Positions 3,528-18,463 are shown, numbered from the stretch's first letter. The stretch: 19,481 nucleotides of DNA from an uncultured Methanomassiliicoccales archaeon (GCA_964504055.1 CAZDCU010000010.1:8568-28048); one strand, 5' to 3'. Notes: a model not told the origin generated them from the sequence alone. A program made the numbers and translations.

Positions 3528-4061
3528 TTATTTTAATAGAATTTCTTTGATCTCTTCAAGATTCTCAGCGAAATAGATTCCTTTCTGCCTTTCTTCCGAA
3601 GACAGGCCCATCTCCGTCATGTGATCCAACAGCATCTTCAGGTTCCGATAGTAACCGTTCAGATTGTAGAGAATACAGGGTGCGTCGATGTGTTTCAGTG
3701 AAACCTTCGACATCACTTCGGAAATCTCTTCCAATGTTCCCGTACCTCCGGGGAATGCAATGAACGCATCTCCGAGTTCAATCATTTTCTTCTTACGTTC
3801 GGACATATCCTCGGTTACAATCAATTCGGTCAGTCCTTCGTATTGAAAACCCTCATCAATAAACGACTGCGGCTCAACACCGATTGCTTTTCCTCCGGCT
3901 TCGAGAACGCTTTTCGCAATTTCACCCATCAATCCTGTTTTGGATCCGCCGTAAACCAATGTGTTTCCGCTTGTGCCGATCCATGTTCCGAGTTCCTGTA
4001 CCGCTTTACGTAAAGACGGGTCGTTTCCTTCGTATGCGCCGAGATAGACTGTAATATTCAT
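3528..4061 (-). CDS. LOG family protein (TIGR00730-type; cytokinin riboside 5-prime-monophosphate phosphoribohydrolase-like)
   Basis: It carries the motifs GGSKTGLMG and PGGTGTLEE (PGGxGTxxE). MNITVYLGA is the usual family N-terminus, so I prefer the ATG at 4061 over the ORF-track ATG at 4121. Confidence 0.85.
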   Translation of the reverse strand: MNITVYLGAYEGNDPSLRKAVQELGTWIGTSGNTLVYGGSKTGLMGEIAKSVLEAGGKAIGVEPQSFIDEGFQYEGLTELIVTEDMSERKKKMIELGDAFIAFPGGTGTLEEISEVMSKVSLKHIDAPCILYNLNGYYRNLKMLLDHMTEMGLSSEERQKGIYFAENLEEIKEILLK

Positions 4062-4155
4062 TCGGGATGCTCCTTTGCCTGTATTCGGGAAATGTATCGG
4101 CAATATACAATCTTCTGTCAATCGTAATTCCGTACAGGTGCCGATACAGAATTAT

Positions 4156-4226: not shown

Positions 4227-6203
4227 ATGGATTCCCTGTCTGTAATATGCAATGACAATCCGACACTGGCAGCGGTATCGGTGTTTCTGATGCTGATACT
4301 GCCGTTTGCCGGTATGTTACCGGGATTGACAAAGACAAAGGAATCTGTGTGTAAACTGCAGATGATTCTGTGCGGAATTTCATGCTGTATCGGGATAATG
4401 ACGTTCCCGATACACTGCATCTGTTCCGATATTTCGGTAATGATTCCTCTGAAATCGGCAATAGGTCCGTACGGAATACTCATAGACGGCATATCGGCGC
4501 TGATGATGTCTGTATCGTCCGCTGTGTTCCTTCTTGTGATACTGCATATGGCAGGTTCTTCGCATGTTATGAACGGCAGATATCTTGCATCTATGAATGC
4601 TCTGTACATCGCGTGTATGCTCTGTATGTGTGCGGACACCGTTGCCGTTCTTCTGATCGGTTGGGAATGCGTTTCGCTGCTTACGTTCCTGATGAACGAT
4701 AAACCCGGGGAAGAAGAGCACAGATGGATGTTCTTCGTCATAACGCACATCGGCGGTCTGATGCTTATCGGAACCTATGCATACATGGCATCCGTTACCG
4801 GAACATTCGTACTTTCGGAATGGGCAGGTATATCTTCACTGGTCGGAACGACACTGTCTTCGATTCTTATCCTGCTGTTATTCCTGGGATTCGGTTCGAA
4901 ACTGGGAATCGTTCCGTTCCACGCATGGATGCCCGAAATGTACAGAACGACACCGACCCACACAGTTATTCTGTTATCCACTGTGTGTTCCAATGTTGCG
5001 ATTCTGATTCTTTTCAAGAGTATTTTCGGATACATCGGAATTTCCGATGACATGAACGGAATCGCATTGGTGCTGATGCTTCTGTCTTCCGTATCGGCGC
5101 TGTGGGGTTCGATGGAATCCATGATTCAGAACAAACCGAAGAGGATTCTTGCCTATTCAAGTATGGAGAATATGGCATTGGTCTGTCTGTGTATGTCGGT
5201 CGCAATAGCGTTCGCGCCCGTATCAAAATCCGCAATGCAGCTGATTCTCATTGCGGGACTGTTACACACAGTCAACCACTCGCTGTTCAAATCTCTGATG
5301 CTGATGACTGTCCACACAGTCGAAGACTGTACGGGTGAGACCGACATCAATAATTTCGGAGGATTGGGGAGAACGTTGCCTGTTCTCTCTTTCGCAGCGG
5401 TTATCGGTACCGCATCTCTCGCAGCCGTACCTCCGATGAACGGATTCACAAGTGAACTGTTAATGCTGCAGTCTATGATTTCCGGTGAAACATCGGAATC
5501 GATGCTGATGCTTGTTATGCCTTTGGCAGTCGCAGTATTGGGTGTCTGCGGTATGATGGGTGCAACATCGTACGTGAGACTGTACGGATTCACCTATCTC
5601 GGACGCCCGAGATCGAAAGGTGCGGAATCTCCGAAATCTGTCGGCAGACTTCCGATGTTTTCTATGTGGGTTCTTGCAGTATCATGTATCGTTACGGGAT
5701 TGTTCGCATTGAACATTGCAGATGTTCTCAACACAGGCATGAATTCATTCCTGGGAACATCTGCGGAATACAGAGATGCGATGTCCGGTAACTTCGAACC
5801 TCTGATTCTCGGAATAATGATTCTCGGAGCCATTGCGATACTTGTATTCCTTATGCGTTCGAGAAAAGAAGACGGCATTGAGGCCAACACATGGGCCTGC
5901 GGAGGTACATTGGACGAAGATATGCAGTACTCTTCGGCGGGATTCTCACAGCCGTTGGTGCGTGTGTTCCACCCAATTTACGGCGACACCGTTTCCATGA
6001 CCGATGATGACGGGCACAAAAAAGTGTTCTATCATGTCAGATTCGTGGAGCCGTTCAAGAAATACATTTACACACCGGTCGCGAAAGGTGTAATATTCAT
6101 TTCAAAACAGGTCGAAAGGATACAGACAGGTAACATTCAGTCGTATCTGACATACATGCTGATTGTTATCGTTCTTGCTTTACTGGCGGTGAGGCTCATA
6201 TGA
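4227..6203 (+). CDS. HyfB/HycC-like (NuoL/Mrp-antiporter-type) membrane subunit of a group-4-hydrogenase-related complex
   Basis: 658 aa and polytopic. It has the antiporter-subunit signature GFGSKLGIVPFHAWMPEMYRTTPTHTVILLS and a C-terminal TWACGG motif typical of HycC/HyfB. Its stop overlaps the start of the next gene (ATGA at 6200-6203). Confidence 0.9.
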   Translation: MDSLSVICNDNPTLAAVSVFLMLILPFAGMLPGLTKTKESVCKLQMILCGISCCIGIMTFPIHCICSDISVMIPLKSAIGPYGILIDGISALMMSVSSAVFLLVILHMAGSSHVMNGRYLASMNALYIACMLCMCADTVAVLLIGWECVSLLTFLMNDKPGEEEHRWMFFVITHIGGLMLIGTYAYMASVTGTFVLSEWAGISSLVGTTLSSILILLLFLGFGSKLGIVPFHAWMPEMYRTTPTHTVILLSTVCSNVAILILFKSIFGYIGISDDMNGIALVLMLLSSVSALWGSMESMIQNKPKRILAYSSMENMALVCLCMSVAIAFAPVSKSAMQLILIAGLLHTVNHSLFKSLMLMTVHTVEDCTGETDINNFGGLGRTLPVLSFAAVIGTASLAAVPPMNGFTSELLMLQSMISGETSESMLMLVMPLAVAVLGVCGMMGATSYVRLYGFTYLGRPRSKGAESPKSVGRLPMFSMWVLAVSCIVTGLFALNIADVLNTGMNSFLGTSAEYRDAMSGNFEPLILGIMILGAIAILVFLMRSRKEDGIEANTWACGGTLDEDMQYSSAGFSQPLVRVFHPIYGDTVSMTDDDGHKKVFYHVRFVEPFKKYIYTPVAKGVIFISKQVERIQTGNIQSYLTYMLIVIVLALLAVRLI

Positions 6204-7138
6204 TCGGGCACATCGTTATGATTCTTCAGGCAGTCGTTCTGATTGCGGTTTCTCCGTTGATGACGGGAATCATCCGTAAAGTCAAGGCAGCTTATCAGGG
6301 AAAAGTAGGGCCGGGTATTTTCCAGCCTTATCATGATTTGGCCAAACTGTTCAGGAAAGGAAGACTGACGGGAAAGGATCACACCTGGTTATTCAAAGCT
6401 ATCCCGTATATGTGTCTCGCATCGATGGTTATCCTTTCGCTGATGGTTCCGTTCGTGTATACAGGCATTCTTTCTCCCTTCGGAGATTTAATCACATTGG
6501 TGTACCTCTTTACTTTATTCAGATTCGCCATGGTTTTGGGCGGATTGGAAGGAGGTTCCGTATTCGGAGGAATGGGAAGCAGCAGGGAAATGATGATGTC
6601 CGTATTGATTGAACCCGCACTGCTGCTTTCGATCATGGCTTTATCCGTTTTAACAGGCGGAAGCACCAATATGTCGGATATTTCGCTGAATATTGCCGAA
6701 ATGGGTTTCGATGCGTTGGGTCCCACGCTGATACTTGCGGTTACGTCGTTTATGATGACATTATTGGCTGAGAATGCGAGAGTGCCTTTCGACAATCCCG
6801 CTACTCATCTGGAACTGACAATGGTCCACGAGGCAATGATTCTCGAATATTCGGGAAAGAAACTGGGAATGATGGAACTTTCATCGGAAATAAGACTTAC
6901 GCTTTTCATGGCGATGATTTCGTCTATGTTCCTTCCGTGGGGAATCGCCACGGAAATCACGCCTTCCGCAATTCTGATTGCGACAGCTGTTGCGATTGTG
7001 AAGATGTTAATCATCGCGGTCGTGATTGCAACGGTTGAAAGTGTAACTGCGAAATACAGACTGTTCAAGACACCGAATCTTCTGACAATCTCATTTATTC
7101 TGTCGTTACTTGCGATGGTTTCGGTGTATATTCTCTGA
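6200..7138 (+). CDS. HycD/HyfC-like (NuoH-type) membrane subunit
   Basis: 312 aa. The N-terminus SPLMTGIIRKVKAAYQGKVGPGIFQPYHDLAKLFRKG is characteristic of HycD/HyfC. The PFDNPATHLEL / EYSG motifs are NuoH-like. GGTGAGG lies upstream of the ATG. Confidence 0.9.
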   Translation: MIGHIVMILQAVVLIAVSPLMTGIIRKVKAAYQGKVGPGIFQPYHDLAKLFRKGRLTGKDHTWLFKAIPYMCLASMVILSLMVPFVYTGILSPFGDLITLVYLFTLFRFAMVLGGLEGGSVFGGMGSSREMMMSVLIEPALLLSIMALSVLTGGSTNMSDISLNIAEMGFDALGPTLILAVTSFMMTLLAENARVPFDNPATHLELTMVHEAMILEYSGKKLGMMELSSEIRLTLFMAMISSMFLPWGIATEITPSAILIATAVAIVKMLIIAVVIATVESVTAKYRLFKTPNLLTISFILSLLAMVSVYIL

Positions 7139-7148
7139 GGTGAAAGAT

Positions 7149-7808
7149 ATGGATGTAACTGTTGCAATGAATCTCATAAACATCTGCGCCTCATCGATGC
7201 TTCTGTGTTCCATACTGTCTATGGCAATGCTACGCATGCCGCCGATGGTGAAATTATTCTCACTGCAGTCACTGTTCTTAGGTGCGATGGCTGCCGTTGT
7301 CGCTTATTATTACGATGAACCGCACATCTACATCATGTGCGCACTGACGGTAATCATCAAAGGATTGGTGATACCGAAGGTACTTGACAGTGTTTTGCTG
7401 AAAGTGGAAACCGTCAAAGAAGCCAAACTGAAAATCGGTATCGCAGGTTCGTTATTGGTGTGTGCTGCGTTGATTTTCATATCGTATTACGTCACGGAAC
7501 CGTTCATAATGAAATTCGACACAATGGAGAACAGCTGTTTGGCATTATCGATGTCTATCGTATTGATCGGACTGCTGATGATGGCTTCCAGGCGTAAGGC
7601 GGTAACGGAAGTTATCGGACTGCTGATGATGGAGAACGGTCTGTTCCTCGGTGCACTGTCCATTTCCCACGGAATGCCGCTGATCGTTGAGATTGCGGCG
7701 TTCTTCGATGTTTTGGTTGCATTGGTAATCATCGGCGTATTCATTCTGAGAATCAACAGATCGTTCCATTCCACCGATGTAGCAGATCTCAGGAGGCTGA
7801 AGGAATGA
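7149..7808 (+). CDS. HyfE-like (NuoK-related) membrane subunit
   Basis: About 219 aa from the ATG at 7149, which is preceded by GAGGTGA. The C-terminal half, GLLMMENGLFLGALSISHGMPLIVEIAAFFDVLVALVIIGVFILRI, parallels E. coli HyfE. The ORF-track start at 7110 overlaps the upstream gene and is probably an over-extension. Confidence 0.75.
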   Translation: MDVTVAMNLINICASSMLLCSILSMAMLRMPPMVKLFSLQSLFLGAMAAVVAYYYDEPHIYIMCALTVIIKGLVIPKVLDSVLLKVETVKEAKLKIGIAGSLLVCAALIFISYYVTEPFIMKFDTMENSCLALSMSIVLIGLLMMASRRKAVTEVIGLLMMENGLFLGALSISHGMPLIVEIAAFFDVLVALVIIGVFILRINRSFHSTDVADLRRLKE

Positions 7809-9274
7809 TACAGGAATCTCTGACGGTGATATTTTCAGTATACATTCTGTTGCTGATTTCATGCGTATTCGTAAAGAAAATGAGAGTTCTTTCATATCTT
7901 TCCGTTACCGCATCGGCTGTCTCCGTTGTCTGTGCGGTATTGACCGCCGTCGGTATGTATGACTGTAATTTCATATTCGAAAACGGACCGCTGTATATGG
8001 ACAGAATATCGCTGATATTCCTCTGTCTTGTTTCATTCGTTTCGTTAATGACGATGCTCTATTCCGACGGATACATCTTCTACGAGAAAGAAGAAGGAAT
8101 CGTTTCCGACAGAGATCTGAGACAGTACTACATTACACTCAATCTGTTTGTCGCCGTGATGTATGTCACATTCATTGTGAATTCATTGGCACTTATTTGG
8201 CTGTGTGTCGGTGCAACCACATTGGTTTCCACTTTCCTTGTGGGATTTTACAAGAACGGAAACTCCACGGAAGCCGCATGGAAGTACATGACACTCTGTT
8301 CAGTGGGAATTACCGTGGCATTGCTCGGTATCACATTGCTGTATGCTTCGACACTCAACGTAATAACGGATCTCGATTCCGCTTTGGATTGGACTGTTCT
8401 CATGAAGAATGCCGGGATGTTGGACAGCGATCTGATGAGAATATCGATTGTTCTGATAATCATCGGATACGGTACGAAAGTCGGATTTGCACCGATGCAC
8501 ACATGGCTTCCCGATGCACACAGTCAGGCACCTACGCCCGTGAGCGGTATGCTGTCGGCGGTACTGCTTAACTGTGCGCTGTACGCAGTACTGAGATGTG
8601 TTATGATTTCCGAGATAACAATACCGGATTTTGCGGACACAATACTGCTGATATTCGGATTGTTCTCGTTATTCATTGCGGCGATGTTCATCATAGGTTC
8701 CAAGGATCTGAAGAGAATGCTCGCATACTCGAGTATCGAGAATATGGGATTGATCGCAATAGGATTCGGTATCGGTACCGAACTGAGCATATTCGGTGCG
8801 CTGATTCAGCTGATTGCACACTCCGTAACAAAACCGCTGTTATTCTTTGCCGCGGGAAACATCATTCAGAAGTATGAAACAAGGGATATGAATCTCATCA
8901 GGGGTGTGAGGGAGAAGATGCCTTTCACGGCATTTATGATGGCTGCAGGTTCTCTGATTATTGTGGGTGTTCCTCCGTTTTCGGTATTTGTTGGAGAATT
9001 CTGCATCGTATACGGCGCGGTTTCATCAAATGCCGTGTGGGTTGCGGTTCTCACTCTGTTTTTACTCGTGTTTGTGTTTGCGGGATTTACAAAACACATT
9101 TTCGAAATGCTTTCGGGTCACACCGAACAGGATATCGGAGAGCATAAAGGAATTTTAAGAAAGATTCCGTTCGTTGTGATGTTTGCCGTGACGCTGATTA
9201 TCGGATTGTTTATGCCTGAGTCCTTCTCTGAATTTTTACACGGTGCGGCTTCGGCTGTAGGGGGACTGATTTGA
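7805..9274 (+). CDS. HyfF/HyfD-like (NuoM/NuoN antiporter-type) membrane subunit
   Basis: 489 aa and polytopic. It has the signature GYGTKVGFAPMHTWLPDAHSQAPTPVSGMLSAVLL. The start overlaps the upstream stop (ATGA) and AGGAGG lies upstream. Confidence 0.9.
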   Translation: MIQESLTVIFSVYILLLISCVFVKKMRVLSYLSVTASAVSVVCAVLTAVGMYDCNFIFENGPLYMDRISLIFLCLVSFVSLMTMLYSDGYIFYEKEEGIVSDRDLRQYYITLNLFVAVMYVTFIVNSLALIWLCVGATTLVSTFLVGFYKNGNSTEAAWKYMTLCSVGITVALLGITLLYASTLNVITDLDSALDWTVLMKNAGMLDSDLMRISIVLIIIGYGTKVGFAPMHTWLPDAHSQAPTPVSGMLSAVLLNCALYAVLRCVMISEITIPDFADTILLIFGLFSLFIAAMFIIGSKDLKRMLAYSSIENMGLIAIGFGIGTELSIFGALIQLIAHSVTKPLLFFAAGNIIQKYETRDMNLIRGVREKMPFTAFMMAAGSLIIVGVPPFSVFVGEFCIVYGAVSSNAVWVAVLTLFLLVFVFAGFTKHIFEMLSGHTEQDIGEHKGILRKIPFVVMFAVTLIIGLFMPESFSEFLHGAASAVGGLI

Positions 9275-10716
9275 CGGATATCCGCAGTGATGATTACAGA
9301 AAAACAGTCGCAGAATACATCGGAGAAGGTTACGGCATAATCGACATGTTCGCATCCGAAAGACATCCTGCGGAAAATGAACACGTCAACGTCATTCTGA
9401 GAAAAGACAATGAAATTGTCAGAGTAATCTGCGATGTGAAAGACGGCAGATATGATTCTCTTTCGGAAAACATACCGTCTGCGGAAATCTACGAACGTCT
9501 GATCAGAGAATACAGCGGATTCGATGCCGTAGGTCTCGGAAACGAATGTCCCGTCACATACTGGAGAACCGGCAATCCGCCTCTGAAGAAGGAACGTTCC
9601 GATATCGGAGAAACAAGAATTTCCGTTCCGCACAACAACATCCGCGGTGACGGAATCTTCGAGATACCTGTCGGACCCGTACATGCGGGAGTAATCGAGC
9701 CGGGTCATTTCAGATTCAGTGTTGCCGGAGAATCGGTAATCAAACTGAATGTACACCTCGGTTATACACACAGGGGAATCGAGAAGATGATGGAAGGTCC
9801 TGTTTCCAGAAACAGAATCCATCTTATCGAACGTACATCGGGAGATACCACCGTTGCAAATTCATTGGCATACTGTCATATCATGGAAAACAACGAAAAA
9901 GTTCCGGAACGTGCGCAGTTTATACGTGTGATTGCTTCGGAACTTGAGAGATTGGCTTCGCATGTGTCAGCCATAGGGGGAGTATGTACCGATACGGCGT
10001 TTTCCGTCCCTGCGGCATTGGGTTCACGTCTTCATGAAGACGTGCTTCGTATCAATCTCAGAGTTTTCAAAGACAGATTCATGCGTAACGTCATCGTTCC
10101 GGGTGGAGTAAGGAAGGATATCGATAAAGAAAACCGCAGGTTCCTGACCGAGTCTCTGCTGAAACTGAAATTGGATATTATGGAATTGTCCGATATGATG
10201 ATGAATTCCTCTACACTCCTCGACCGTCTCGAGACTACAGGTGTACTCAAAAAAGAAGTGGCGGAAATCCACAGGGCGGTAGGTCCGATTGCAAGAGCAA
10301 GCGGAGTGACATCCGATGTAAGGAAAGAATGTCCTTACGATGCATATGATAAGCTGGGATTCACGATTCATACGGAAACTTCCGGAGATGTACTTGCAAG
10401 AACCGAAGTGAGAATAAGAGAAGCGTATGAATCGATCGATCTCATAATGCAGTCTCTCGCTCTCATCGAAGACGGTCCGCTGAGGATAGATGTGAAACCG
10501 AACGACGGATTTGCGGTATCTGTTGTAGAATCGGCGAGAGGAGAACTTGTACACTCTGCGGAGATACGTGACGGTGAAATCTGGAGATACAGCATACGTG
10601 ATCCGTCTCTCGTGGATTGGCCGATGATGTCCTATGCAGTACCGGGAAACGTCGTTCCCGATTTCCCGTTGATCAACAAGAGTTTCAGTCTTTCGTACAG
10701 CGGAAACGATCTGTGA
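9271..10716 (+). CDS. HycE/HyfG-like fused NuoC-NuoD-type 'large subunit' homolog lacking all four NiFe-ligand cysteines
   Basis: 481 aa with a TTG start overlapping the upstream stop. The N-terminal part has a NuoC-like motif (IPSAEIYERLIREYSGFDAVG). The remainder is HycE-like (GPVHAGVIEPGHFRFSV, GYTHRGIEK). At the expected N-terminal RxCGxCxxxH position it reads ERTSGDTTVANS. At the expected C-terminal DPCxxCxxR position it reads SFSLSYSGNDL, and the protein ends there. Confidence 0.9.
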   Translation: MTDIRSDDYRKTVAEYIGEGYGIIDMFASERHPAENEHVNVILRKDNEIVRVICDVKDGRYDSLSENIPSAEIYERLIREYSGFDAVGLGNECPVTYWRTGNPPLKKERSDIGETRISVPHNNIRGDGIFEIPVGPVHAGVIEPGHFRFSVAGESVIKLNVHLGYTHRGIEKMMEGPVSRNRIHLIERTSGDTTVANSLAYCHIMENNEKVPERAQFIRVIASELERLASHVSAIGGVCTDTAFSVPAALGSRLHEDVLRINLRVFKDRFMRNVIVPGGVRKDIDKENRRFLTESLLKLKLDIMELSDMMMNSSTLLDRLETTGVLKKEVAEIHRAVGPIARASGVTSDVRKECPYDAYDKLGFTIHTETSGDVLARTEVRIREAYESIDLIMQSLALIEDGPLRIDVKPNDGFAVSVVESARGELVHSAEIRDGEIWRYSIRDPSLVDWPMMSYAVPGNVVPDFPLINKSFSLSYSGNDL

Positions 10717-10725
10717 GGTGTATGT

Positions 10726-11472
10726 ATGCTGAGTTTCAATCTTAAAAATGCATTTTCCAAGAAGGTTGCGGAATCGATTCCCGTTCTGAACGAAAATTCT
10801 CTGATGATGCCTTTTCCCGACGGATGTACTCACTGCGGTGCCTGTATTGACAACTGTCCGTCGAAAGCTATCGATATCGTCAACAATAAATGGACAATAG
10901 ACCTCGGAAGATGCGTATTCTGTCTGGAATGTACCGAAATCTGTCCCGAACACGCTCTTACGAAGATTCCCGCACCCGATTATACACTTTCACGTGAAGA
11001 AATGATTTATTCGGAATCGAAACAACCCGATTATCATTATGAAAAATTGCCGGAAGAGTTCGTAAAATCATTCGGAAAATCAATTTCGATAAGAGAAATC
11101 GATGCAGGTTCCTGTAATGCATGTGAAACCGAGATCAACTGCTGTTCCAACCCGTATTACGATATGGGACGTTTCGGACTGAAGATTGTGGCATCGCCGA
11201 GACACGCGGATGTTTTCATCGTAACAGGCCCTATGACCGAGAATATGGCTGAGGCCGCAAAACGTACCTACGATGCGGCACCGTTTCCGAAGATGGTGAT
11301 TGCAACAGGTACATGTGCAATATCCAACGGAATCTTCGCAGACGGTGACGTAAGAGAAGGCGGTACCGAGAGTGTTCTTCATCCCGATATGTACATAATC
11401 GGATGTCCTCCGTCACCGAACAGGATTATACGTTCGATTCTGAAGGCATTCGGATTTATTGAACAACAATGA
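10726..11472 (+). CDS. Fusion of a HycF/NuoI-like 2x[4Fe-4S] ferredoxin domain and a HycG/NuoB-like small subunit
   Basis: 248 aa. The N-terminal part has CTHCGACIDNCP and CVFCLECTEICP, two CxxCxxCxxxCP motifs. The C-terminal part has DAGSCNACETEI, ATGTCA and IIGCPPSP, the NuoB/HycG-type cluster ligands. GAGGTG lies upstream of the ATG. Confidence 0.88.
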   Translation: MLSFNLKNAFSKKVAESIPVLNENSLMMPFPDGCTHCGACIDNCPSKAIDIVNNKWTIDLGRCVFCLECTEICPEHALTKIPAPDYTLSREEMIYSESKQPDYHYEKLPEEFVKSFGKSISIREIDAGSCNACETEINCCSNPYYDMGRFGLKIVASPRHADVFIVTGPMTENMAEAAKRTYDAAPFPKMVIATGTCAISNGIFADGDVREGGTESVLHPDMYIIGCPPSPNRIIRSILKAFGFIEQQ

Positions 11473-11839
11473 CGATACACTGTGCGTTGCTTACAACGTA
11501 GTTGGAAACGCTTCCGAGAACCACTCTGTCAAGGCCTGTCTTATTGGCAGCTCTTCCCACGATGATTGCACTGCAGTTAAGTCTCTGCGCACATTCCAAA
11601 AGCACTGTCGAAGGATGACCGGATTCCACCTGTGTTACAACATCTACACCCTGTTCGGATGCTGTTTTCTTAATCTGTGCAAACTTTTCTTCAATAGCAT
11701 CCATTTCCGAAAGATGTTCTTTGGACGGGAACACGGAGACAATATGAAGGCGTTCGTTGAACGATTTCGCATATTTCAGAGCATAATCCAACGCTTTCTG
11801 AGTGTGCTCTCTGCCGTCATATGCCATCAGTACAGTCAT
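11456..11839 (-). CDS. Universal stress protein (UspA family)
   Basis: MTVLMAYDG...IVGRAANKTGLDRVVLGSVSNYVVSNAQCIVIVV shows a typical USP fold with a G-x-G...GS ATP-binding-type motif. I prefer the ATG at 11839 (or 11851) because a TATA-like element sits about 27 nt upstream. The ORF-track start at 11926 adds an atypical N-terminal extension. The 3-prime end overlaps the convergent hyf-like gene by 17 nt. Confidence 0.85.
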   Translation of the reverse strand: MTVLMAYDGREHTQKALDYALKYAKSFNERLHIVSVFPSKEHLSEMDAIEEKFAQIKKTASEQGVDVVTQVESGHPSTVLLECAQRLNCSAIIVGRAANKTGLDRVVLGSVSNYVVSNAQCIVIVVQ

Positions 11840-11861
11840 TGTTCCGCCCATGTCGGTTGTA

Positions 11862-11873
11862 CTATAAAAATAA
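11862..11873. promoter_or_regulatory. TATA-like element in the divergent USP / RyR-gene control region
   Basis: The element reads TTATTTTTATAG on the minus strand and CTATAAAAATAA on the plus strand. It is centred about 27 nt upstream of the USP ATG at 11839, consistent with a leaderless transcript. Because it is quasi-symmetric, it could also serve the plus-strand gene. A second TATA-like ATATATAG lies at 11929-11936 on the plus strand. Confidence 0.35.
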
Positions 11874-11910
11874 GGGTAACTCTTCAGAGCATCTTCGATT
11901 TGCGGCGGAT

Positions 11911-12519
11911 GTGCAGGGTTACACACTCATATATAGTCAGGATTTCATTCTCTTCCCGATACGGGCGGTTGATTCGCAGAATTCCGAATGTCTGTATCGG
12001 ACTGTCGGTGATACGTTGGTTTGTGAATATGTGTCTGATAATTTTTCCGAATATCCGAAAGAAGAGGATATCGAAAAGACAGCACAGGTTATTCACAGTT
12101 ATTACAACAGAAACCGTCTGACTGAGTTTCCGGACAAACCTCTTGAATATCCGACCTGGGAGGATTTACCCCAGGATCTGAAACATTCCAACATAATGCA
12201 GGCGAAAGACATTCCCAGGAAACTTACTCTGATCGACTGTCATATCGAAAAAGACGACGGTTCCGGACTGAAATCGTTCACTTCCGAAGAAGAGATACTT
12301 TTAGGAAAGATTGAGCATGAAAGATGGGTCGGAGAGAGAATTTCGGAAGGTTGGAAATACGGTTCCGAAAAAAATGTTGAGAAACGTATTTCTCCGTACA
12401 TCGCCGAATGGGATAAAATTCCCGAATCGATCAGGCTGTACGATATCGAAGCAGTCAGAAACATAATTCCGCTTCTGAAATTATCGGGTTTGATGGTGGT
12501 GCGCAATGACAGGAAATAA
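11911..12519 (+). CDS. Protein with two tandem RyR (ryanodine-receptor-type) domain repeats
   Basis: The C-terminal repeat EHERWVGERISEGWKYGSEKNVEKRISPYIAEWDKIPESIRLYDIEAVRNIIPLLKLSGLMVV fits the prokaryotic RyR-domain pattern (HERW..GW.YG...P....W..IPE....D...VR.IP.LL...G). The preceding segment AQVIHSYYN...YPTWEDLPQDLKHSNIMQAKDIPRKLTLIDCHI is a more divergent copy. The stop at 12519 is firm, but the start is uncertain. ATG 11821 would overlap the divergent USP 5-prime end. Alternatives are GTG 11911, TTG 12016 (GGTGA 4 nt upstream) and GTG 12031. Confidence 0.7.
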   Translation: MQGYTLIYSQDFILFPIRAVDSQNSECLYRTVGDTLVCEYVSDNFSEYPKEEDIEKTAQVIHSYYNRNRLTEFPDKPLEYPTWEDLPQDLKHSNIMQAKDIPRKLTLIDCHIEKDDGSGLKSFTSEEEILLGKIEHERWVGERISEGWKYGSEKNVEKRISPYIAEWDKIPESIRLYDIEAVRNIIPLLKLSGLMVVRNDRK

Positions 12520-14461
12520 AACAGACAGTTCGTTGGATGCACCGTTATTTATCTCGGTGACAGGACACGCAGACATACCTTCAAAGGATTTTCAGTTCAT
12601 CGAATCGGAATTGGATAAACTTTTTACGATGTTACGGACGAAATATCCCGACACCAGACTCGTATTGATTTCAGGAATGTGTCAGGGTGCGGATATCATC
12701 GTTTCCGAGTTTGCTCTGAAGAAAGGACTGCATGTTGCGCCTGTTCTTCCCATGTCTTTGGAGAAATACAGGAAAACATTCTCATCGGAAGATTATCTTC
12801 ACAGAATGGAAGTTATCCTTGAAAATGAGAACACATACAGTCCGTTTGTCATAGAAACCGATTCCGATGACGAAAGAGACAGTTACACAAATCTTTCTGC
12901 ATTCTTAATTTTCAATTCAAGTGTTATGATTTCCCTTTGGGACGGAAGGAGTTACGAACGTAACGGCGGTACTTTCGATACAATGAGGATGGCTTACGAG
13001 GGCGTTGACACATCTGTCATGCAGAATTATTCGAGAACCGTTTCCGGTACCGCATCGGACATACCGTTCCGCCTGAAATATCTTGATTCTGCGGAAGACT
13101 GTCTGATTTACAGAATTCCCGTATCCCGTGAATCTTCCGATGAAGAATTGATCGGAAAAGGATGTAAAAATCCCAATGAAATCAAACAGGGCTGCGGTTT
13201 CATTGTCCCCATAGTGGTTCAGTCCGACGGTGCGGAACCCGATATCATGTCTCCGAAAGTTATTCCTTCGGATACAATTCCCCCGATCTATGATTCCGCA
13301 TTCGCAAGGATGGATGAATTCAACAGAGATGTAAAGAATCATCTCAACAGTCATTCCGGCGTTTCCTGTATCGATGCGGATTCAGATTCGGATTACGAAT
13401 GTGATTCCTGTTTCTATCTTCTTTCCGCAAAAAGCGACAGTGTTAAGAAAACAATAGAAAAAGTCAAAAAATCACCGACGATGAATCTTACGGCCGAACG
13501 TTATCACATAGCGGATGTTTTGGCACTGAGAGATCAGTCTTCTACTTTCAGAATGATCCGTGCGATTATTCTCGTAACTGCACTTTCCGGATTCTTCTTC
13601 AGTCTGTTCATACTGATGAACGGTTCCGTTCTGATCAACGTAATATACACAGTACTGATGATAGGCGGTACCGCTCTGATATATCTGCATAACAGAAAGG
13701 GAGATTATCTCAGATTCATCGAATACAGAGCGTTGGCGGAATCCATGAGAGTAGAATACTACCGTACGCTGATGGGCGTCCGCCGTCTGATTCCGAATTC
13801 ATGTTACGGATACATGAAAAACGAACTGCTTTGGACGAATACCGTTCTCAAATCATGGAACACACCGTTCATGAACGATTACGGTTCGCTTCCCGTACTG
13901 AGTGATGATGAAATCATTTCATTGGTAAACGAATGCTGGGTCGACGACCAGATGAATTACCATGAAAAAACCAAAAACAGGAACCGTGCCAAACTGACAA
14001 AGAACAAAAACGAGGCAAAAATTCTGTCTGTTACAACTACAGTAATTTCGGGATTATTGGCCGCATCGACAATGTTCTTCGAAGAATTCATGGACGGTTC
14101 GGTTGCTTCCGTCGGAGGATTGGTACTTTTCGGAGTACGTATGGTGCCCGTTCTGAATGTGGATATCACATTCATAGTCAGGGCTCTGCTTGTGGTACTT
14201 GTTGCGTTATCCACGTATGTTATGACTTCCGCCATTCTTATCCACGGAGGAACTCCCGAACAGATCGAATCGAAAAGACAGATGTTTGTTATTGCAAAAC
14301 TCCGTATGATGAAATCCGATTCAAAGATTCAGAGAGAAATTCTGCTTGAATTGGGCGATCAGTGCATAGCGGAGATGAACGATTGGGTTTACGAACACAG
14401 AATGAAGGATTACAAATCGGGCGTAGCCAAAACGAGTCTTATGGATGTGGATTCGAAATAA
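12506..14461 (+). CDS. SLOG-like (SMF/DprA-LOG superfamily) N-terminal domain fused to two 2TM (SLATT-like) membrane modules; predicted ligand-gated membrane effector
   Basis: 651 aa. The N-terminal roughly 165-210 aa show a Rossmannoid strand/Gly-loop pattern like LOG/YpsA/ThsA-SLOG: LFISVTGHADIP, RLVLISGMCQGADIIVSEFA, VMISLWDGRSYERNGGTFDT. The C-terminal half has two similar modules. Each is a polar helix starting xYH (ERYHIADVLALRDQ..., MNYHEKTKNRNRAKL...) followed by a pair of TM helices (aa about 350-395 and about 505-579). The ATG lies inside the end of the RyR gene, a 14-nt overlap. Confidence 0.72.
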   Translation: MTGNKTDSSLDAPLFISVTGHADIPSKDFQFIESELDKLFTMLRTKYPDTRLVLISGMCQGADIIVSEFALKKGLHVAPVLPMSLEKYRKTFSSEDYLHRMEVILENENTYSPFVIETDSDDERDSYTNLSAFLIFNSSVMISLWDGRSYERNGGTFDTMRMAYEGVDTSVMQNYSRTVSGTASDIPFRLKYLDSAEDCLIYRIPVSRESSDEELIGKGCKNPNEIKQGCGFIVPIVVQSDGAEPDIMSPKVIPSDTIPPIYDSAFARMDEFNRDVKNHLNSHSGVSCIDADSDSDYECDSCFYLLSAKSDSVKKTIEKVKKSPTMNLTAERYHIADVLALRDQSSTFRMIRAIILVTALSGFFFSLFILMNGSVLINVIYTVLMIGGTALIYLHNRKGDYLRFIEYRALAESMRVEYYRTLMGVRRLIPNSCYGYMKNELLWTNTVLKSWNTPFMNDYGSLPVLSDDEIISLVNECWVDDQMNYHEKTKNRNRAKLTKNKNEAKILSVTTTVISGLLAASTMFFEEFMDGSVASVGGLVLFGVRMVPVLNVDITFIVRALLVVLVALSTYVMTSAILIHGGTPEQIESKRQMFVIAKLRMMKSDSKIQREILLELGDQCIAEMNDWVYEHRMKDYKSGVAKTSLMDVDSK

Positions 14462-14479: not shown

Positions 14480-15199
14480 ATGATGATTGTCGGAGAAGAA
14501 GACGCTGCAAAGAGGCATCAGACCCGTATAAAGAAGATAAAGGCGCATATCAGACTGAATGCTACGCCGAATAACGTTATGAGTATCTGCAGCAAAGCCG
14601 GTCTTCCGTTCCCCAAAGGTGTTTCCTTTGAAAAATTCCCCGAATGGCTCGATGAAAATCTCAGAGATCTTCCGGATTCTTCTTTGGTACAGATTATGAG
14701 AAAATTGGGTCTGACTGTCGTTTCCGACCCTGCGGATTTCAACGGAGTTTTCATCATTCACTGCAGTGCGGATAAAAAACTTGCAGATGCGGTGACAAAA
14801 TCACTCAATGAGATAGGAATAGACGATTCTATGATTTACTATTCATCCGGAGAAGAGACGGGAACGAGACTCGGAACATCATTTGTGGATATCATATTCA
14901 AATGCATCAGAGATGCAAAACTGATTTTATGCATACTCAGTAACAATTCGATCAACAGTCAGTACTGTATGCAGGAAGCAGGCGCTTCCATGATTCTGAA
15001 CAAACCGATAATTCCGATTTTATCAGGGATTGAACCGACAGAGATGCCCGGTTTCATGGATAATACACGTTACATCGCAGCGGACATGTCAACAGCTGAG
15101 AATGCGAAAGCATTTCTCAAGGAAGTCTGCCGTATTATGGAAATAGATGCATCTTCGGCATCCGTTTCGTTGGGTGTTCAGAAAGTTCTCAGCAGGTGA
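14480..15199 (+). CDS. TIR-domain protein with an uncharacterised N-terminal region of about 90 aa
   Basis: The C-terminal part fits a bacterial-type TIR (TIR_2-like) pattern: GVFIIHCSADKKLADAVTKSLNEIGI..., GTSFVDIIFKCIRDAKLILCILSNNSINSQYCMQEAGASMILNKPIIPIL. This includes the xCxxE glutamate position (E at 14975-14977). The start is either ATG 14480 or the upstream in-frame GTG 14471, 9-18 nt after the stop of the previous gene. Confidence 0.82.
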   Translation: MMIVGEEDAAKRHQTRIKKIKAHIRLNATPNNVMSICSKAGLPFPKGVSFEKFPEWLDENLRDLPDSSLVQIMRKLGLTVVSDPADFNGVFIIHCSADKKLADAVTKSLNEIGIDDSMIYYSSGEETGTRLGTSFVDIIFKCIRDAKLILCILSNNSINSQYCMQEAGASMILNKPIIPILSGIEPTEMPGFMDNTRYIAADMSTAENAKAFLKEVCRIMEIDASSASVSLGVQKVLSR

Positions 15200-15203
15200 A
15201 AAC

Positions 15204-16169
15204 ATGGGTCAGAATGTCGATAAGCTGGTTGAAGAGATTAAGAATTCACAGGTCCGCGGAGCTACAACCATCGCCATCCGTGTGACGGAGGCACTGGTTT
15301 CCGATGCAGAAGCCTACATGAATTCCGATGATAGAGATGACGACCTGAAATATCATACTCAGGAATGGGGTTTCCAGCTGATTGAGTCCCGTCCGTCACA
15401 GATTACTTTGAGAAATTCCGTCAAAAGCATTCTCAGAGGTATTGAGAAGATCGATGACGATAACGATGAGAAAACATTCGAGGTTCTGAAGAGCAATGCC
15501 GATGCATTCGTTAAAGTTGCAGAGAAAGCTTCTGAAAAAATCGCATTCCTCGGAGCGAATATCATCTGCGACGGAGACACGGTTCTGACAAACAGCCACA
15601 GTGCGTTGGTTGTGGGGATTCTCAATGAAGCAGTCAACAAAATGGGAAAGGATGTACGTGTTATAGTCACCGAAACACGTCCGAAATACCAGGGAATCAA
15701 AATGGTGAACGAACTCGTAAATCTCGGAATAAAGACCACACTGATTGTAGACGGGGCCGTAAACCATGTGATGCCCGAAGTGGATTTGGTCATTGTCGGT
15801 GCGGATACAGTAAGCTCCGACGGTTCCGTTATTTCGAAAATCGGTGTTTCTCAGATTGCTCTTTCCGCTCATGAATGGAAAGTTCCGTTTTATGTTGCGG
15901 CACCTACCTTCAAATTTTCCGAAGAGACGCTTTCAGGCGTTATGATCGCTCTCGAAGAGGGAAAAGCCGAGGATGTCGTCAAAAGAAGCACAGTCGGAGA
16001 TTACGGTCTTCTGGAGAATCATTCGGATGACGGACTGTTCGAGATAAGAAATCCCTCATTCGATGCGACAAGGGCGGAATTCGTACGCGGCGTGATCACC
16101 GAACTGTACATTATGTCTCCGTATTCGATCGGAGAATTTCTCGCACGCCGTTCCGGATTCATTGACTGA
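15204..16169 (+). CDS. eIF-2B alpha/beta/delta family protein (aIF-2BII / ribose-1,5-bisphosphate isomerase-like)
   Basis: MGQNVDKLVEEIKNSQVRGATTIA..., VRVIVTETRPKYQGIKM..., VIVGADTVSSDGSVISKIGVSQIALSAHEWKVPFYVAAPTFKFS are family hallmarks. The ATG at 15204 is preceded by AGGTGA and lies 4 nt after the TIR gene stop. The ORF-track start at 15147 lies inside the TIR gene and is probably an over-extension. Confidence 0.88.
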   Translation: MGQNVDKLVEEIKNSQVRGATTIAIRVTEALVSDAEAYMNSDDRDDDLKYHTQEWGFQLIESRPSQITLRNSVKSILRGIEKIDDDNDEKTFEVLKSNADAFVKVAEKASEKIAFLGANIICDGDTVLTNSHSALVVGILNEAVNKMGKDVRVIVTETRPKYQGIKMVNELVNLGIKTTLIVDGAVNHVMPEVDLVIVGADTVSSDGSVISKIGVSQIALSAHEWKVPFYVAAPTFKFSEETLSGVMIALEEGKAEDVVKRSTVGDYGLLENHSDDGLFEIRNPSFDATRAEFVRGVITELYIMSPYSIGEFLARRSGFID

Positions 16170-16818
16170 GTTCGGAATCGATAATCGGTATGAGATCGGC
16201 AAGATTATTCAGAATCCATGTGCCGTTCTGTTTCATCATACTGTCTGCAGGCGTAAGGTCGGGTACGACGGCCACTCTGCACCCCGCTGCGTGAGCCGAT
16301 AGCACTCCGTTGGGGGAATCTTCGACTGCGATGCAGTCGCAGGGAGCTTCGCCGATTTTATCGGATGCGTAGAGATACACATCCGGCGCAGGCTTACCGT
16401 TTTCAACCATATGCGCTGAAATCAACGAATTCAGTTTTGTATCGAGGCCGATTATTCTCATGTAATTCATCGCACGGTCGTACTGTGTCGATGTTACCAC
16501 AGCGATTTTTATTCCCTTATCTGTGAGATAATCAATCAGTTCGTACGCACCGGTTTTGACGGGCATTCCGTTTTCTTCTACGTAGTTGCGCATCATTTCT
16601 CTGCGGCGGTCGCGTATTTTGAAGAAATCGAAGGATTCTCCGTACTTACTGCGGTAAACTCTGCTGCATGTTTCGGGATCGTTGCTTCTGAGCGAAAGAA
16701 TGTCTGCAGGATCCACTTCGAAACCGAATTCCCTGCATGTTTCAATCATAAAATCGAGGTTGAGTCTCTCTGAATCTATCAGTGTCCCGTCCATGTCGAA
16801 GAGAACCGCTTTAATCAT
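16159..16818 (-). CDS. HAD-superfamily hydrolase, subfamily IA (beta-phosphoglucomutase/phosphatase-like), paralog 1
   Basis: 219 aa with the HAD motif I LFDMDGTLIDSE, then VVTS, GKPAPDVY and VEDSPNGV. The start overlaps the upstream kinase stop (ATGA at 16815-16818). The 3-prime end overlaps the convergent eIF-2B-family gene by 11 nt. Confidence 0.9.
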   Translation of the reverse strand: MIKAVLFDMDGTLIDSERLNLDFMIETCREFGFEVDPADILSLRSNDPETCSRVYRSKYGESFDFFKIRDRRREMMRNYVEENGMPVKTGAYELIDYLTDKGIKIAVVTSTQYDRAMNYMRIIGLDTKLNSLISAHMVENGKPAPDVYLYASDKIGEAPCDCIAVEDSPNGVLSAHAAGCRVAVVPDLTPADSMMKQNGTWILNNLADLIPIIDSELSQ

Positions 16819-17411
16819 GAGTCCGACCCCTCAAGAAGGATGTTGATGTCCGTAAAAAGTTTTGTGTAGTCGATCGATTCAAGATCGGTCGTATCGAGTG
16901 TTATGCTTCTGCCGATACAGAACGAACCCATTCCGCGTTCTTCATAGCCTTTAAACGATTCTCTTGTGGCAACAGCCGTTTTTTCTTTTACATCGCCTTC
17001 CGGATACCTTGTGCTTACGGCATGTCCGCGGTGTCTTTCCGATGACTGATTGCGCCGGTTGAATCTTTCGATGAATGTGTCCGTATCTCCTTTCAACATT
17101 ACCGTGACAGCAGAATAACCGTATTTTTCAAGAAGATCTTCGATTTCCCTGCCGGTATTTTTCTCGAAATTATTGTCGAGGATGAACGGTACCTTGTTTG
17201 ACATAAGCATCTCGGCGATGTAGTACATCGTATACGTACCCGCTCTGTCGAGTTTTCTTTTGGATTCGTAGCAATCAAAGCCGATATTATCGAAAAGAAT
17301 CTCTTTGAGACGGTCTTTGGAGAGAATCGGGAATCCGAACATCTCAGACAGATGTTTTGCAACGGTGGATTTACCGGATGCCGGCAGTCCCGATAACAGA
17401 ATACATTTCAT
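16815..17411 (-). CDS. P-loop kinase / NTPase (AAA_33-like, small-molecule kinase family)
   Basis: 198 aa with Walker A LLSGLPASGKST at the N-terminus. Size and layout resemble small nucleotide/metabolite kinases. It appears translationally coupled to the downstream HAD gene. Confidence 0.75.
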   Translation of the reverse strand: MKCILLSGLPASGKSTVAKHLSEMFGFPILSKDRLKEILFDNIGFDCYESKRKLDRAGTYTMYYIAEMLMSNKVPFILDNNFEKNTGREIEDLLEKYGYSAVTVMLKGDTDTFIERFNRRNQSSERHRGHAVSTRYPEGDVKEKTAVATRESFKGYEERGMGSFCIGRSITLDTTDLESIDYTKLFTDINILLEGSDS

Positions 17412-17803: not shown

Positions 17804-18463
17804 TCACTGATTTATTTCCGATTCGATTATCGGTATGAGTTCGGAAAGATCGTTCAGAATCCATTTTCCGTTCTTTTTCATCATTTCATCTGCAGGTGTG
17901 AGATCGGGAACAACGGCTACGTTGCACCCTGCGGAATATGCGGACTGCACTCCGTTCGGTGAGTCTTCTACGGCGATACAGTTGACAGGAATTTCACCGA
18001 CTTTTTCAGAAGCGTAAAGATACACATCCGGCGCAGGCTTACCGTTTTTCACCATTGCTGCGGAAATAACATAATCGAATCTTCCGTCGAGACCGATTAT
18101 TTTCATATAATCCACGGCACGCTCGTACCGATTGGATGTGACAACGGCAGTCTTGATATCGGTATCTTCAAGAAAATCCATCAGTTCGTACACTCCGGGT
18201 TTTGCCTGCAGCCCTTCGGTTTCGACATAATTCCGCATTTTCTCTCTGCGGCTGTCGCGTATTCTGAAAAAATCGAAGTCTTCGCCGTACTTACTGCGGT
18301 AGAATTTACTGCAGCCTTCGGGAGATACGCTTCTCATTGAAAGAACATCCTCACGGTCGACATCGAAACCGAATTCTCTGCATGTTTCGATTGTAAAATC
18401 AAGATTCGGTCTTTCGGAATCGACGAGTGTTCCGTCCATGTCGAAGAGGATTGCTCTGATCAT
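17804..18463 (-). CDS. HAD-superfamily hydrolase, subfamily IA, paralog 2
   Basis: 219 aa, collinear with paralog 1 with no gaps and roughly two-thirds identical by eye (LFDMDGTLVDSE, GKPAPDVYLYAS, AVEDSPNGV, VAVVPDLTPAD). Confidence 0.9.
   Translation of the reverse strand: MIRAILFDMDGTLVDSERPNLDFTIETCREFGFDVDREDVLSMRSVSPEGCSKFYRSKYGEDFDFFRIRDSRREKMRNYVETEGLQAKPGVYELMDFLEDTDIKTAVVTSNRYERAVDYMKIIGLDGRFDYVISAAMVKNGKPAPDVYLYASEKVGEIPVNCIAVEDSPNGVQSAYSAGCNVAVVPDLTPADEMMKKNGKWILNDLSELIPIIESEINQ

Follow-up and report, generated by a model that had tools for sequence, protein, structure and literature searches.

What does a protein that joins a SLOG-like head to two membrane-spanning modules do in a methanogenic archaeon, and with which partners does it work? 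The protein in question is encoded in the window, a stretch of 19,481 nucleotides (nt) of DNA from an uncultured Methanomassiliicoccales archaeon (GCA_964504055.1 CAZDCU010000010.1:8568-28048). A sequence-only reading of the window had described this open reading frame (ORF) of 651 amino acids (aa) as a SLOG-type sensor fused to an internally duplicated module with two transmembrane (TM) helices, and had proposed that the whole forms a half-pore which opens or oligomerizes upon ligand binding. The ORF and the features described were confirmed, and the interpretation is supported in part. Most of the functional information, however, is held by the two flanking genes, which that reading overlooked and which encode a RyR-domain protein and a TIR-domain protein:

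11821..12519, + strand: RyR-domain partner gene, 232 aa (Pfam RyR, E 2.5e-10)
12506..14461, + strand: putative effector gene, SLOG head and two SLATT modules; intact ORF with an ATG start, 651 aa
14471..15199, + strand: TIR-domain gene, 242 aa (TIR_2, E 3.2e-12)

In the window the three genes form one tight cassette, in which the RyR and effector genes overlap by 14 nt at stop and start, and 9 nt separate the effector stop from the TIR gene. All three are under purifying selection, as estimated from their orthologues in L007, a Candidatus Methanomethylophilaceae genome. The ratio of nonsynonymous to synonymous substitution rates (dN/dS) is 0.10 for the effector (dS 0.45, 91% identity), indicating that the gene is functional, 0.20 for the RyR gene and 0.018 for the TIR gene, whose product is 99% identical and thus far more conserved than the effector. 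The effector orthologue in L007 also places the origin of the window in a gut methanogen of the Methanomassiliicoccales. Judging from domain composition and gene order, we propose that the 651-aa protein is probably the effector of a three-gene Thoeris-like cassette (RyR, effector, TIR) of a Methanomethylophilaceae archaeon.

Association of the family with TIR and RyR domains

TIR and RyR domains recur as neighbours or fusion partners of the family to which this protein belongs. Among 59 distinct related loci, surveyed within a radius of 6 kilobases (kb), a TIR ORF is found at 23, at 19 of which it is part of a same-strand operon. RyR ORFs are likewise found at 23 loci (20 in an operon), and 35 loci have one or the other. 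When the effectors are collapsed at 40% identity into 17 clusters, TIR is found near nine of them, RyR near eight and either domain near 13. A recurrent operon of rumen Clostridia consists of a RyR gene, two TIR genes, a gene for a ~1,000-aa leucine-rich repeat (LRR) protein, assigned from Pfam, and the effector; in L023, L029, L041 and L045 the TIR genes are thus located between the RyR gene and the effector within one operon. In the window and in its archaeal relatives L001, L005, L007 and L008, the RyR gene is the invariable upstream partner, with overlapping start and stop. Furthermore, in 13 of the 165 top family representatives the SLOG head is directly preceded by a fused RyR domain, and such gene fusions indicate that the RyR domain works with the effector.

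The TIR protein of the window displays a conserved C..E motif (SQYCMQEAG) and is matched in PADLOC by SpbK (1.7e-14) and ThsB (2e-7). The TIR gene has an IF-2B-family gene directly downstream of it both in the window (IF-2B at 15147-16169, where the two ORFs overlap by 53 nt) and in L005 (at 12683-13969 of that locus). L005 also encodes a 456-aa fusion of an N-terminal TIR domain with a class I methyltransferase (10512-11882, - strand), which has the effector cassette on one side and the second TIR gene on the other.

The family is large and taxonomically diverse. An exhaustive profile search retrieved 8,699 representatives (clusters at 50% identity) at E<=1e-3 and 1,455 at E<=1e-30, from both Bacteria and Archaea, and the head, module 1 and module 2 are all present in 162 of the 166 family proteins examined. 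The same three-part protein, usually of 530-600 aa, was found in a genome scan at about 50 loci, in Clostridia, Gamma-, Alpha- and Deltaproteobacteria, Planctomycetes and others. The three-part architecture is therefore widespread and not peculiar to the window. A plasmid search with a Pseudomonadales relative gave partial SLOG matches only, annotated as 'hypothetical', 'DUF4231' or 'DUF1273'.

The SLOG head

12542..13150, + strand: SLOG domain (YspA/DprA-like), aa 13-215, predicted to be cytoplasmic (YAcAr, DprA, Foldseek, conserved motifs)

The head is matched by Pfam YAcAr (PF10686, the YspA SLOG family) with E-values from 2.5e-5 to 8.7e-6, and weakly by DprA. The best Foldseek matches in the PDB are DprA structures of three species (5mll, 4ljl, 3uqz; probability 1.00), ShosA, the LOG protein TM1055 and a Moco carrier protein; TRPM2 and TRPM8 appear lower among the matches and are weak, with E-values of about 0.2-1. 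Against BFVD, a library of viral folds, the head matches DprA-like, YspA cpYpsA-related SLOG and DUF2493 proteins, with target TM-scores of up to 0.75. The near-invariant motifs of the head are TGHxD (G20, H21, D23), S56/G61/D63, W145-D146-G147 and G154-G155-T156. In the alignment of 132 members, the family form of these loops, TGHxD, S..AEGAD, WDG and GGT, is almost invariant, with G61 kept in 130 sequences, D63 in 131, G154 in 129, and G155 and T156 in 127 each. The Pfam and fold matches, together with the conserved loops, make the SLOG assignment sound, and the clade is YspA/DprA-like, not LOG-like. The head has the Rossmann-like alpha/beta fold of DprA, LOG and YpsA, with Gly-rich loops behind strand 2 (GxGxD-type) and ahead of the late helix (GGT). 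Indeed, the LOG motif PGGxGTxxE is absent from the head when the sequence is read through. No SIR2 or Macro domain was matched by Pfam in the effector.

The SLOG-like head proposed in the sequence-only reading is thus borne out, and the motifs quoted for it are found at the residues given (SVTGH at 17-21, ISGMCQGADI at 55-64, SLWDG at 143-147, NGGT at 153-156). Of the two glycines it had named in the first Gly-loop, G61 is right, whereas position 58 is a methionine and the other glycine of the loop is G57. The bona fide LOG gene that it had cited for comparison is also real. It extends over 3528-4121 on the - strand and encodes a LOG-family protein (Lysine_decarbox E 5.5e-35, SLOG cluster4 E 1.1e-14), so that the window contains a second, unrelated gene of the SLOG superfamily.

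The linker and two unlike SLATT modules

13151..13468, + strand: variable linker, aa 216-321, containing a disordered Cys/Asp-rich stretch at aa 284-302
13469..13777, + strand: SLATT module 1 (DUF4231/SLATT_3-type), aa 322-424 (DUF4231, hydropathy, AlphaFold2)
13904..14416, + strand: SLATT module 2 (SLATT_1-type), aa 467-637 (SLATT_1 via homologues, module-2 hidden Markov model, AlphaFold2)
14087..14164, + strand: lineage-specific insert between TM3 and TM4, aa 528-553 (short beta strands in the AlphaFold2 model)

According to these predictions, the membrane part consists of two unlike SLATT modules in tandem, with four predicted TM helices. Module 1 comprises a lead helix, TM1 (aa ~349-371), TM2 (aa ~375-397) and a conserved helix, [DE]YRALAEGLRV, in which R408, E412 and R415 are invariant or close to it. 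It passes the Pfam threshold for DUF4231 (28.3 bits vs 24.7) and matches SLATT_3 weakly, and in diverse homologues module 1 is matched by DUF4231 in 25 of 31 and by SLATT_3 in 21 of 31. DUF4231 is, we presume, a member of the SLATT clan of Pfam, with which the overlapping SLATT_3 matches are consistent. Module 2 is composed of a lead helix (W478/Q482/Y485), TM3 (aa ~504-526), TM4 (aa ~554-578) and two C-terminal helices carrying G617/E623/W627/H631. By itself, module 2 of the window protein has no Pfam match. It was recognized via its homologues: a hidden Markov model (HMM) of module 2 connects the window protein to proteins with SLATT_1 matches, and among 40 diverse homologues, module 2 is matched by SLATT_1 in 25 (best E 3.6e-8) and by DUF4231 in three. 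The two SLATT-type modules of the sequence-only reading are thereby supported, and the remaining motifs that it had quoted are in place (CIDADSDSDYECDSC at 288-302, ERYHIAD at 331-337, YLRFIEYRALAESMRVEYYR at 401-420, MNYHEK at 483-488 and QIESKRQMFVIAKLRMM at 586-602).

Hydropathy and modelling are both compatible with TM helices in the hydrophobic segments. Kyte-Doolittle windows of 19 residues rise above 1.6 in three regions, aa 346-395 (a hairpin of two helices), 506-525 and 544-582, also in the family average. The full-length AlphaFold2 model, computed from a 14-sequence alignment, has a predicted local distance difference test (pLDDT) score of 82.8 and a predicted TM-score (pTM) of 0.82, with helices at 324-370, 375-398 and 400-422 in the first module and 467-524, 554-578 and 584-602 in the second. 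Four modelled helices of 22-25 residues cover the hydropathy peaks. Both modules follow a common plan: a long cytoplasmic lead helix runs into the first TM helix, and then come a hairpin, the second TM helix and a further helix, cytoplasmic and conserved. From the basic residues beside the cytoplasmic helix ends we infer a location inside the cell for both termini and for every conserved soluble part. The cytoplasmic helices that flank the TM hairpins (YRALAEGLRV, W..Q..Y, ELG.EAL.EN.DW..HR) display the strongest conservation of the whole protein. The insert at aa 528-553, ~26 moderately hydrophobic residues, is found in the archaeal clade and is modelled as strands at 532-553 (pLDDT ~74); by the positive-inside rule it would face outside. 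It is missing from P0017 (a gap in the alignment) and, by eye, seems shorter in bacterial members. Neither the whole-family profile nor the module-2 profile has a significant match in the PDB, and PDB fold and profile searches found no solved SLATT-like structure.

The Cys/Asp-rich linker described in the sequence-only reading exists as a stretch of sequence, although it turned out to be a variable, disordered linker and not a motif. Residues 284-302 have pLDDT <50, the cysteines are not conserved and an HMM of the linker picks up close relatives only. A metal site in this stretch was considered and rejected because of the low model confidence, the variability and the unconserved cysteines.

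By contrast, the internal duplication proposed in the sequence-only reading was not supported. BLASTP of module 1 against module 2 gave nothing (E 46), and hhalign probabilities were 0.3% with the 14-sequence alignment, 1.9% with the 132-sequence alignment (effective number of sequences 6-8) and 3.6% with curated sub-alignments, equal to negative controls. After these four tests the duplication was rejected as undetectable. The 'xYH' signature thought to be common to the two modules was also discarded, being restricted to the clade of the window protein: across the family, its position is occupied mostly by Y/F-A in module 1 and by Y-F/Y/H in module 2. The modules appear to derive from two different SLATT families. 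As both match SLATT-clan profiles, a very old common origin is possible, and their relationship would at most be ancient.

The RyR-domain partner

12268..12510, + strand: RyR (R12-type) repeat, aa 150-230 of the partner (local HMM and PDB alignments)

The RyR domain (PF02026) has recently been characterized in phage proteins that cleave the ribose-ribose bond of 2' or 3' cyclic ADP-ribose (2'cADPR/3'cADPR) or sequester these molecules (PMC13232231, May 2026 preprint). RyDEP-type proteins rely on a dyad of His and Asp, a Trp for stacking and a His that binds the phosphate, and their fold is homologous to repeat R12 of ryanodine receptors (PMC13232231). The partner in the window scores 40.9 bits against PF02026 (cut-off 27.4), and in the PDB its RyR domain matches Repeat12 of RyR1/2/3 and a B. 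thetaiotaomicron protein (best E 2.2e-16); the RyDEP structure is not among these matches. The HExW motif (HERW, with its His at about residue 166) and a downstream YD (in LYDIE, with its Asp at about residue 208) are kept, and Ser190 aligns with the His of the R12 motif 'kkHPcLV'. This His would correspond to the phosphate-binding H100 of RyDEP, the mapping to RyDEP H75/W78/H100/D117 being based on motif spacing, not on alignment. The domain is thus the same as in RyDEP, whereas its setting is different: RyDEP is a phage counter-defence protein, and the window domain is host-encoded, translationally coupled to the effector (fused in others) and carries Ser where the phosphate-His aligns. Searches of phages with the RyR domain (tblastn) retrieved RyR proteins of Erwinia, Agrobacterium and Sinorhizobium phages; DyoEdafos was not among them.

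The RyR partners of the archaeal relatives are 559-569 aa long, and the window version corresponds to their C-terminal ~175 aa (52-54% identity). The possibility that the window gene is a frameshifted remnant of a ~560-aa partner was rejected, as tblastn detected nothing upstream that corresponds to the N-terminal 380 aa. The gene is short by nature, like its counterpart in L007, and is maintained by purifying selection. A 220-aa ORF with a TTG start (11459-12121, + strand) overlaps the start of the RyR gene in another frame; it has neither a Pfam match nor similarity to the long RyR partners and is probably not a gene. Two long partners from Clostridia (680-710 aa; L020 3908-5950 and L061 3854-5980) have sub-threshold N-terminal matches to HD (E 8e-4 and 5e-3), and the ~480 residues in front of the RyR domain in other long partners have no Pfam match. 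In L057, a 756-aa protein (4264-6534, + strand) combines RyR (aa 487-573) with a SLOG head (aa 582-738), lacks SLATT and is encoded directly upstream of a SLOG-SLATT protein.

Relationship to known systems

The sensor of 3'cADPR in type I Thoeris is a SLOG domain, and in type VII a SLATT effector is activated by canonical cADPR (bioRxiv 10.64898/2025.12.03.692087). Among 29 putative Thoeris effector types, Yirmiya et al. list '4TM SLOG' or 'SLOG and 4TM' (bioRxiv 10.64898/2025.12.03.692087, Tables S1, S2). Like the window protein, members of this class have SLOG and four TM helices, are found next to TIR and were proposed to be signal-activated effectors, and by description and architecture, not by sequence, the window family appears to be the same class. 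Seeded searches with the published '4TM SLOG' TIR sequences (IMG effector genes 2862473379, 2691454910) gave no usable locus, and BLAST of these TIRs against the family loci gave weak matches only. The effector class is large and computationally anticipated, its effector function being putative, and the sequence-only reading, with its emphasis on the difference from known single-module proteins, had overstated how unusual the architecture is. However, '4TM SLOG' is a label in supplementary tables, with no mention there of a RyR partner or of tandem SLATT modules. These modules seem to be new, as does, more importantly, the RyR R12 domain as a consistent partner of, or fusion with, the effector alongside TIR, including in Archaea. 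Indeed, the literature searched contains no mention of RyR together with 'SLOG domain', and the RyDEP preprint makes none of host-encoded or SLOG-linked RyR proteins (PMC13232231).

Similarity to individual effectors is partial in each case. ThsH of type VII Thoeris is likewise a TIR-linked SLATT membrane effector, thought to oligomerize and breach the membrane, but it is described as SLATT only, with ligand pockets between protomers, whereas the window protein has a separate SLOG domain and two unlike SLATT modules. ThsA of type I Thoeris (SIR2-SLOG) also uses SLOG as the receptor of a TIR-made cADPR isomer. It has, however, no TM region, a SIR2 NADase output and a STALD-type SLOG, compared with the YspA/DprA-like SLOG and the four-TM SLATT output of the window protein. 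Type III Thoeris is reported to comprise several TIR proteins with an effector that has an SMF/DprA-type SLOG (van den Berg et al. 2024); both the DprA-type SLOG and the presence of more than one TIR gene recall the Clostridia operons. The NCBIfam models for Thoeris type III (at least one, ThcB4) have no match at E<=0.01 in either the window protein or the three bacterial relatives searched, and a neighbouring TIR-LRR protein has a weak match to ThcB4 (3.6e-4). As for the overall design, the ADPR-gated channel TRPM2, with its SLOG-type MHR1/2, is likewise a case of a SLOG fold gating a membrane channel; since the fold matches are weak and the TM domain is unrelated, it is an analogy of design, not of family membership. 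The SLATT name reportedly comes from Burroughs et al. (Nucleic Acids Res., 2015), who are said to have predicted SLOG-SLATT fusions, with a nucleotide sensor and a two-TM pore, as parts of conflict systems; the sensor-to-pore logic is the same as here.

Proposed function and alternative explanations

We propose that, upon infection, the TIR protein would use nicotinamide adenine dinucleotide (NAD+) to make a signal derived from ADP-ribose (ADPR), such as a cADPR isomer or a relative of it, which would be bound by the SLOG head. The long lead helices into TM1 and TM3 would relay the change to the four-helix SLATT region, and this region would oligomerize or open, breach the membrane and stop the infected cell. 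The R12-type RyR domain may serve as a second signal-binding element, either a buffer or hydrolase that sets the threshold and ends signalling or a co-receptor that assembles the effector. More tentatively, the host RyR domain could be a dedicated component of this path from TIR through SLOG to the pore, binding the TIR-made signal and acting as a hydrolase 'timer' or as a dimerizing co-receptor. A parallel to such a built-in timer is offered by those CARF domains in type III CRISPR effectors that are self-limiting.

Several observations weigh against this proposal. The YAcAr score of 24.4 bits for the whole protein, or 25.9 bits for the head alone, stays below the gathering cut-off of 28.2; the effector has no match in PADLOC, and in NCBIfam its match to SLATT_3 is weak and Thoeris type III models are not matched. 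Two cloned systems of the 'SLOG and 4TM' type, from Streptomyces sp. GKU 895 and Ca. Nitrospira nitrosa, provided no defence in E. coli (bioRxiv 10.64898/2025.12.03.692087), for which an unsuitable host may be the reason. Owing to the Ser at the aligned phosphate-His position, binding or cleavage of the signal by the window RyR protein is uncertain. No TIR is in range at 36 of the 59 loci, many of which are on short contigs. In L005, the effector of which is 45% identical, the orthologous TIR gene (44% identity) adjoins the IF-2B gene four genes away from the effector, and in L001 and L008 there is no TIR within 6 kb, so that the TIR adjacency in the window could be partly a matter of synteny. 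The same three loci would suit a working unit that consists of the RyR protein and the SLOG-SLATT effector, with the adjacent TIR being separate or linked to IF-2B and not the source of the signal; an ADPR-type ligand would then come from TIRs in trans, from the N-terminal region of long RyR proteins or from NAD+ breakdown. Such a pair is also suggested by the invariably upstream, overlapping position of the RyR gene in all archaeal relatives, by the 13 representatives with RyR fused to the effector, compared with no TIR fusion among 166 proteins, and by the bacterial loci L047, L054 and L061, which have RyR and no TIR in range. Nevertheless, we consider it unlikely, since TIR belongs to a same-strand operon at 19 of the 59 loci and recurs near nine of the 17 deep clusters, an operon frequency far above plausible background (by estimate, not from a control set). 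Moreover, TIR genes are inserted between the RyR gene and the effector in the four Clostridia loci, and in the window the TIR gene follows the effector stop after 9 nt.

Two further explanations concern the effector itself. The SLOG head could be an enzyme that processes a nucleotide, for example at the N-glycosidic bond of an ADPR-type molecule, with the helices as an anchor; several SLOG clades, including LOG, are N-glycosidases (PMC9503650), and the near-invariant polar residues H21, D23, D63, E68 and D146 could be catalytic. This appears improbable, as the membrane part is no plain anchor: both modules match SLATT effector families, and conservation peaks in the cytoplasmic helices flanking the TM hairpins. 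In addition, the nearest sequence and fold matches of the head are YspA/DprA-type and not LOG, whose motif it lacks. Still less probable, in our judgement, is a housekeeping ligand-gated channel for ion or osmotic control by NAD+/ADPR metabolites in place of an antiviral suicide effector. TRPM2, a SLOG-gated channel with a physiological role, is a precedent for it, and it would fit the core metabolic neighbours (a hydrogenase operon upstream and the IF-2B family gene downstream), the modest dip in GC content (42-44% vs 45-48%) and the strong purifying selection. However, the neighbours of the family are parts of conflict systems (TIR, LRR, tetratricopeptide repeats, kinases and, among archaeal relatives, a ProA-like anti-phage protein), the genes between effector and TIR vary, as expected of a defence island, and SLATT domains have so far been reported from defence systems only.

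If this proposal is correct, the family represents a large class of effectors of TIR-signalling immunity (>1,400 clusters at 50% identity), which extends into gut methanogenic archaea, where such systems have rarely been reported. Combining a distinct SLOG sensor with two dissimilar SLATT modules in a single polypeptide, the protein would be a good model for membrane opening by SLATT domains. The link to RyR may be the most important aspect: binding and cleavage of cADPR isomers by R12 were shown only in 2026 and only in phage counter-defence proteins, and a host-encoded RyR domain coupled or fused to a SLOG effector near TIR suggests a native regulatory role of the domain. It may also provide a simple bacterial and archaeal system for R12 with cADPR-type ligands, which bears on the debated connection between cADPR and ryanodine receptors. 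On the more tentative reading, with the RyR domain as a dedicated component of the pathway, one prokaryotic operon would unite three modules that occur apart in eukaryotes, TIR (as in SARM1 and plant TIRs), a SLOG-gated channel (as in TRPM2) and the RyR R12 repeat of ryanodine receptors, and this would point to a common prokaryotic origin of membrane permeability controlled by cADPR/ADPR.

Other genes in the window and in archaeal relatives

Gene content between the effector and TIR varies among the archaeal relatives. In L001 (7973-9262) and L008 (7934-9298), a ~430-455-aa protein encoded downstream of the effector has a match to NCBIfam 'anti-phage protein ProA' (E 4e-26) that covers ~300 positions from the start of the model, and a Sel1-repeat protein comes next; both genes are absent from the window. 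Just downstream in L001 are ORFs of 656 aa (10741-12711) and ~420 aa (12716-13971), with lengths like those of the effector and its neighbour; the 656-aa ORF has no match to the head, module-1 or module-2 HMMs or to Pfam.

Upstream of the cassette, a six-gene operon of the window (4227-11472, + strand) encodes a membrane-bound, complex-I-related hydrogenase (Ech/Mbh-like). Its subunits are two antiporter-like proteins, a NuoH-like and a NuoK-like protein, the NiFe large subunit/49-kDa protein and a small subunit that carries a fused 2x[4Fe-4S] ferredoxin domain. On the downstream side, two paralogous 219-aa HAD_2 hydrolases (16159-16818 and 17804-18463, both on the - strand) surround an AAA_33 kinase-like gene (16815-17411), and the HAD_2 pair looks like a local duplication.

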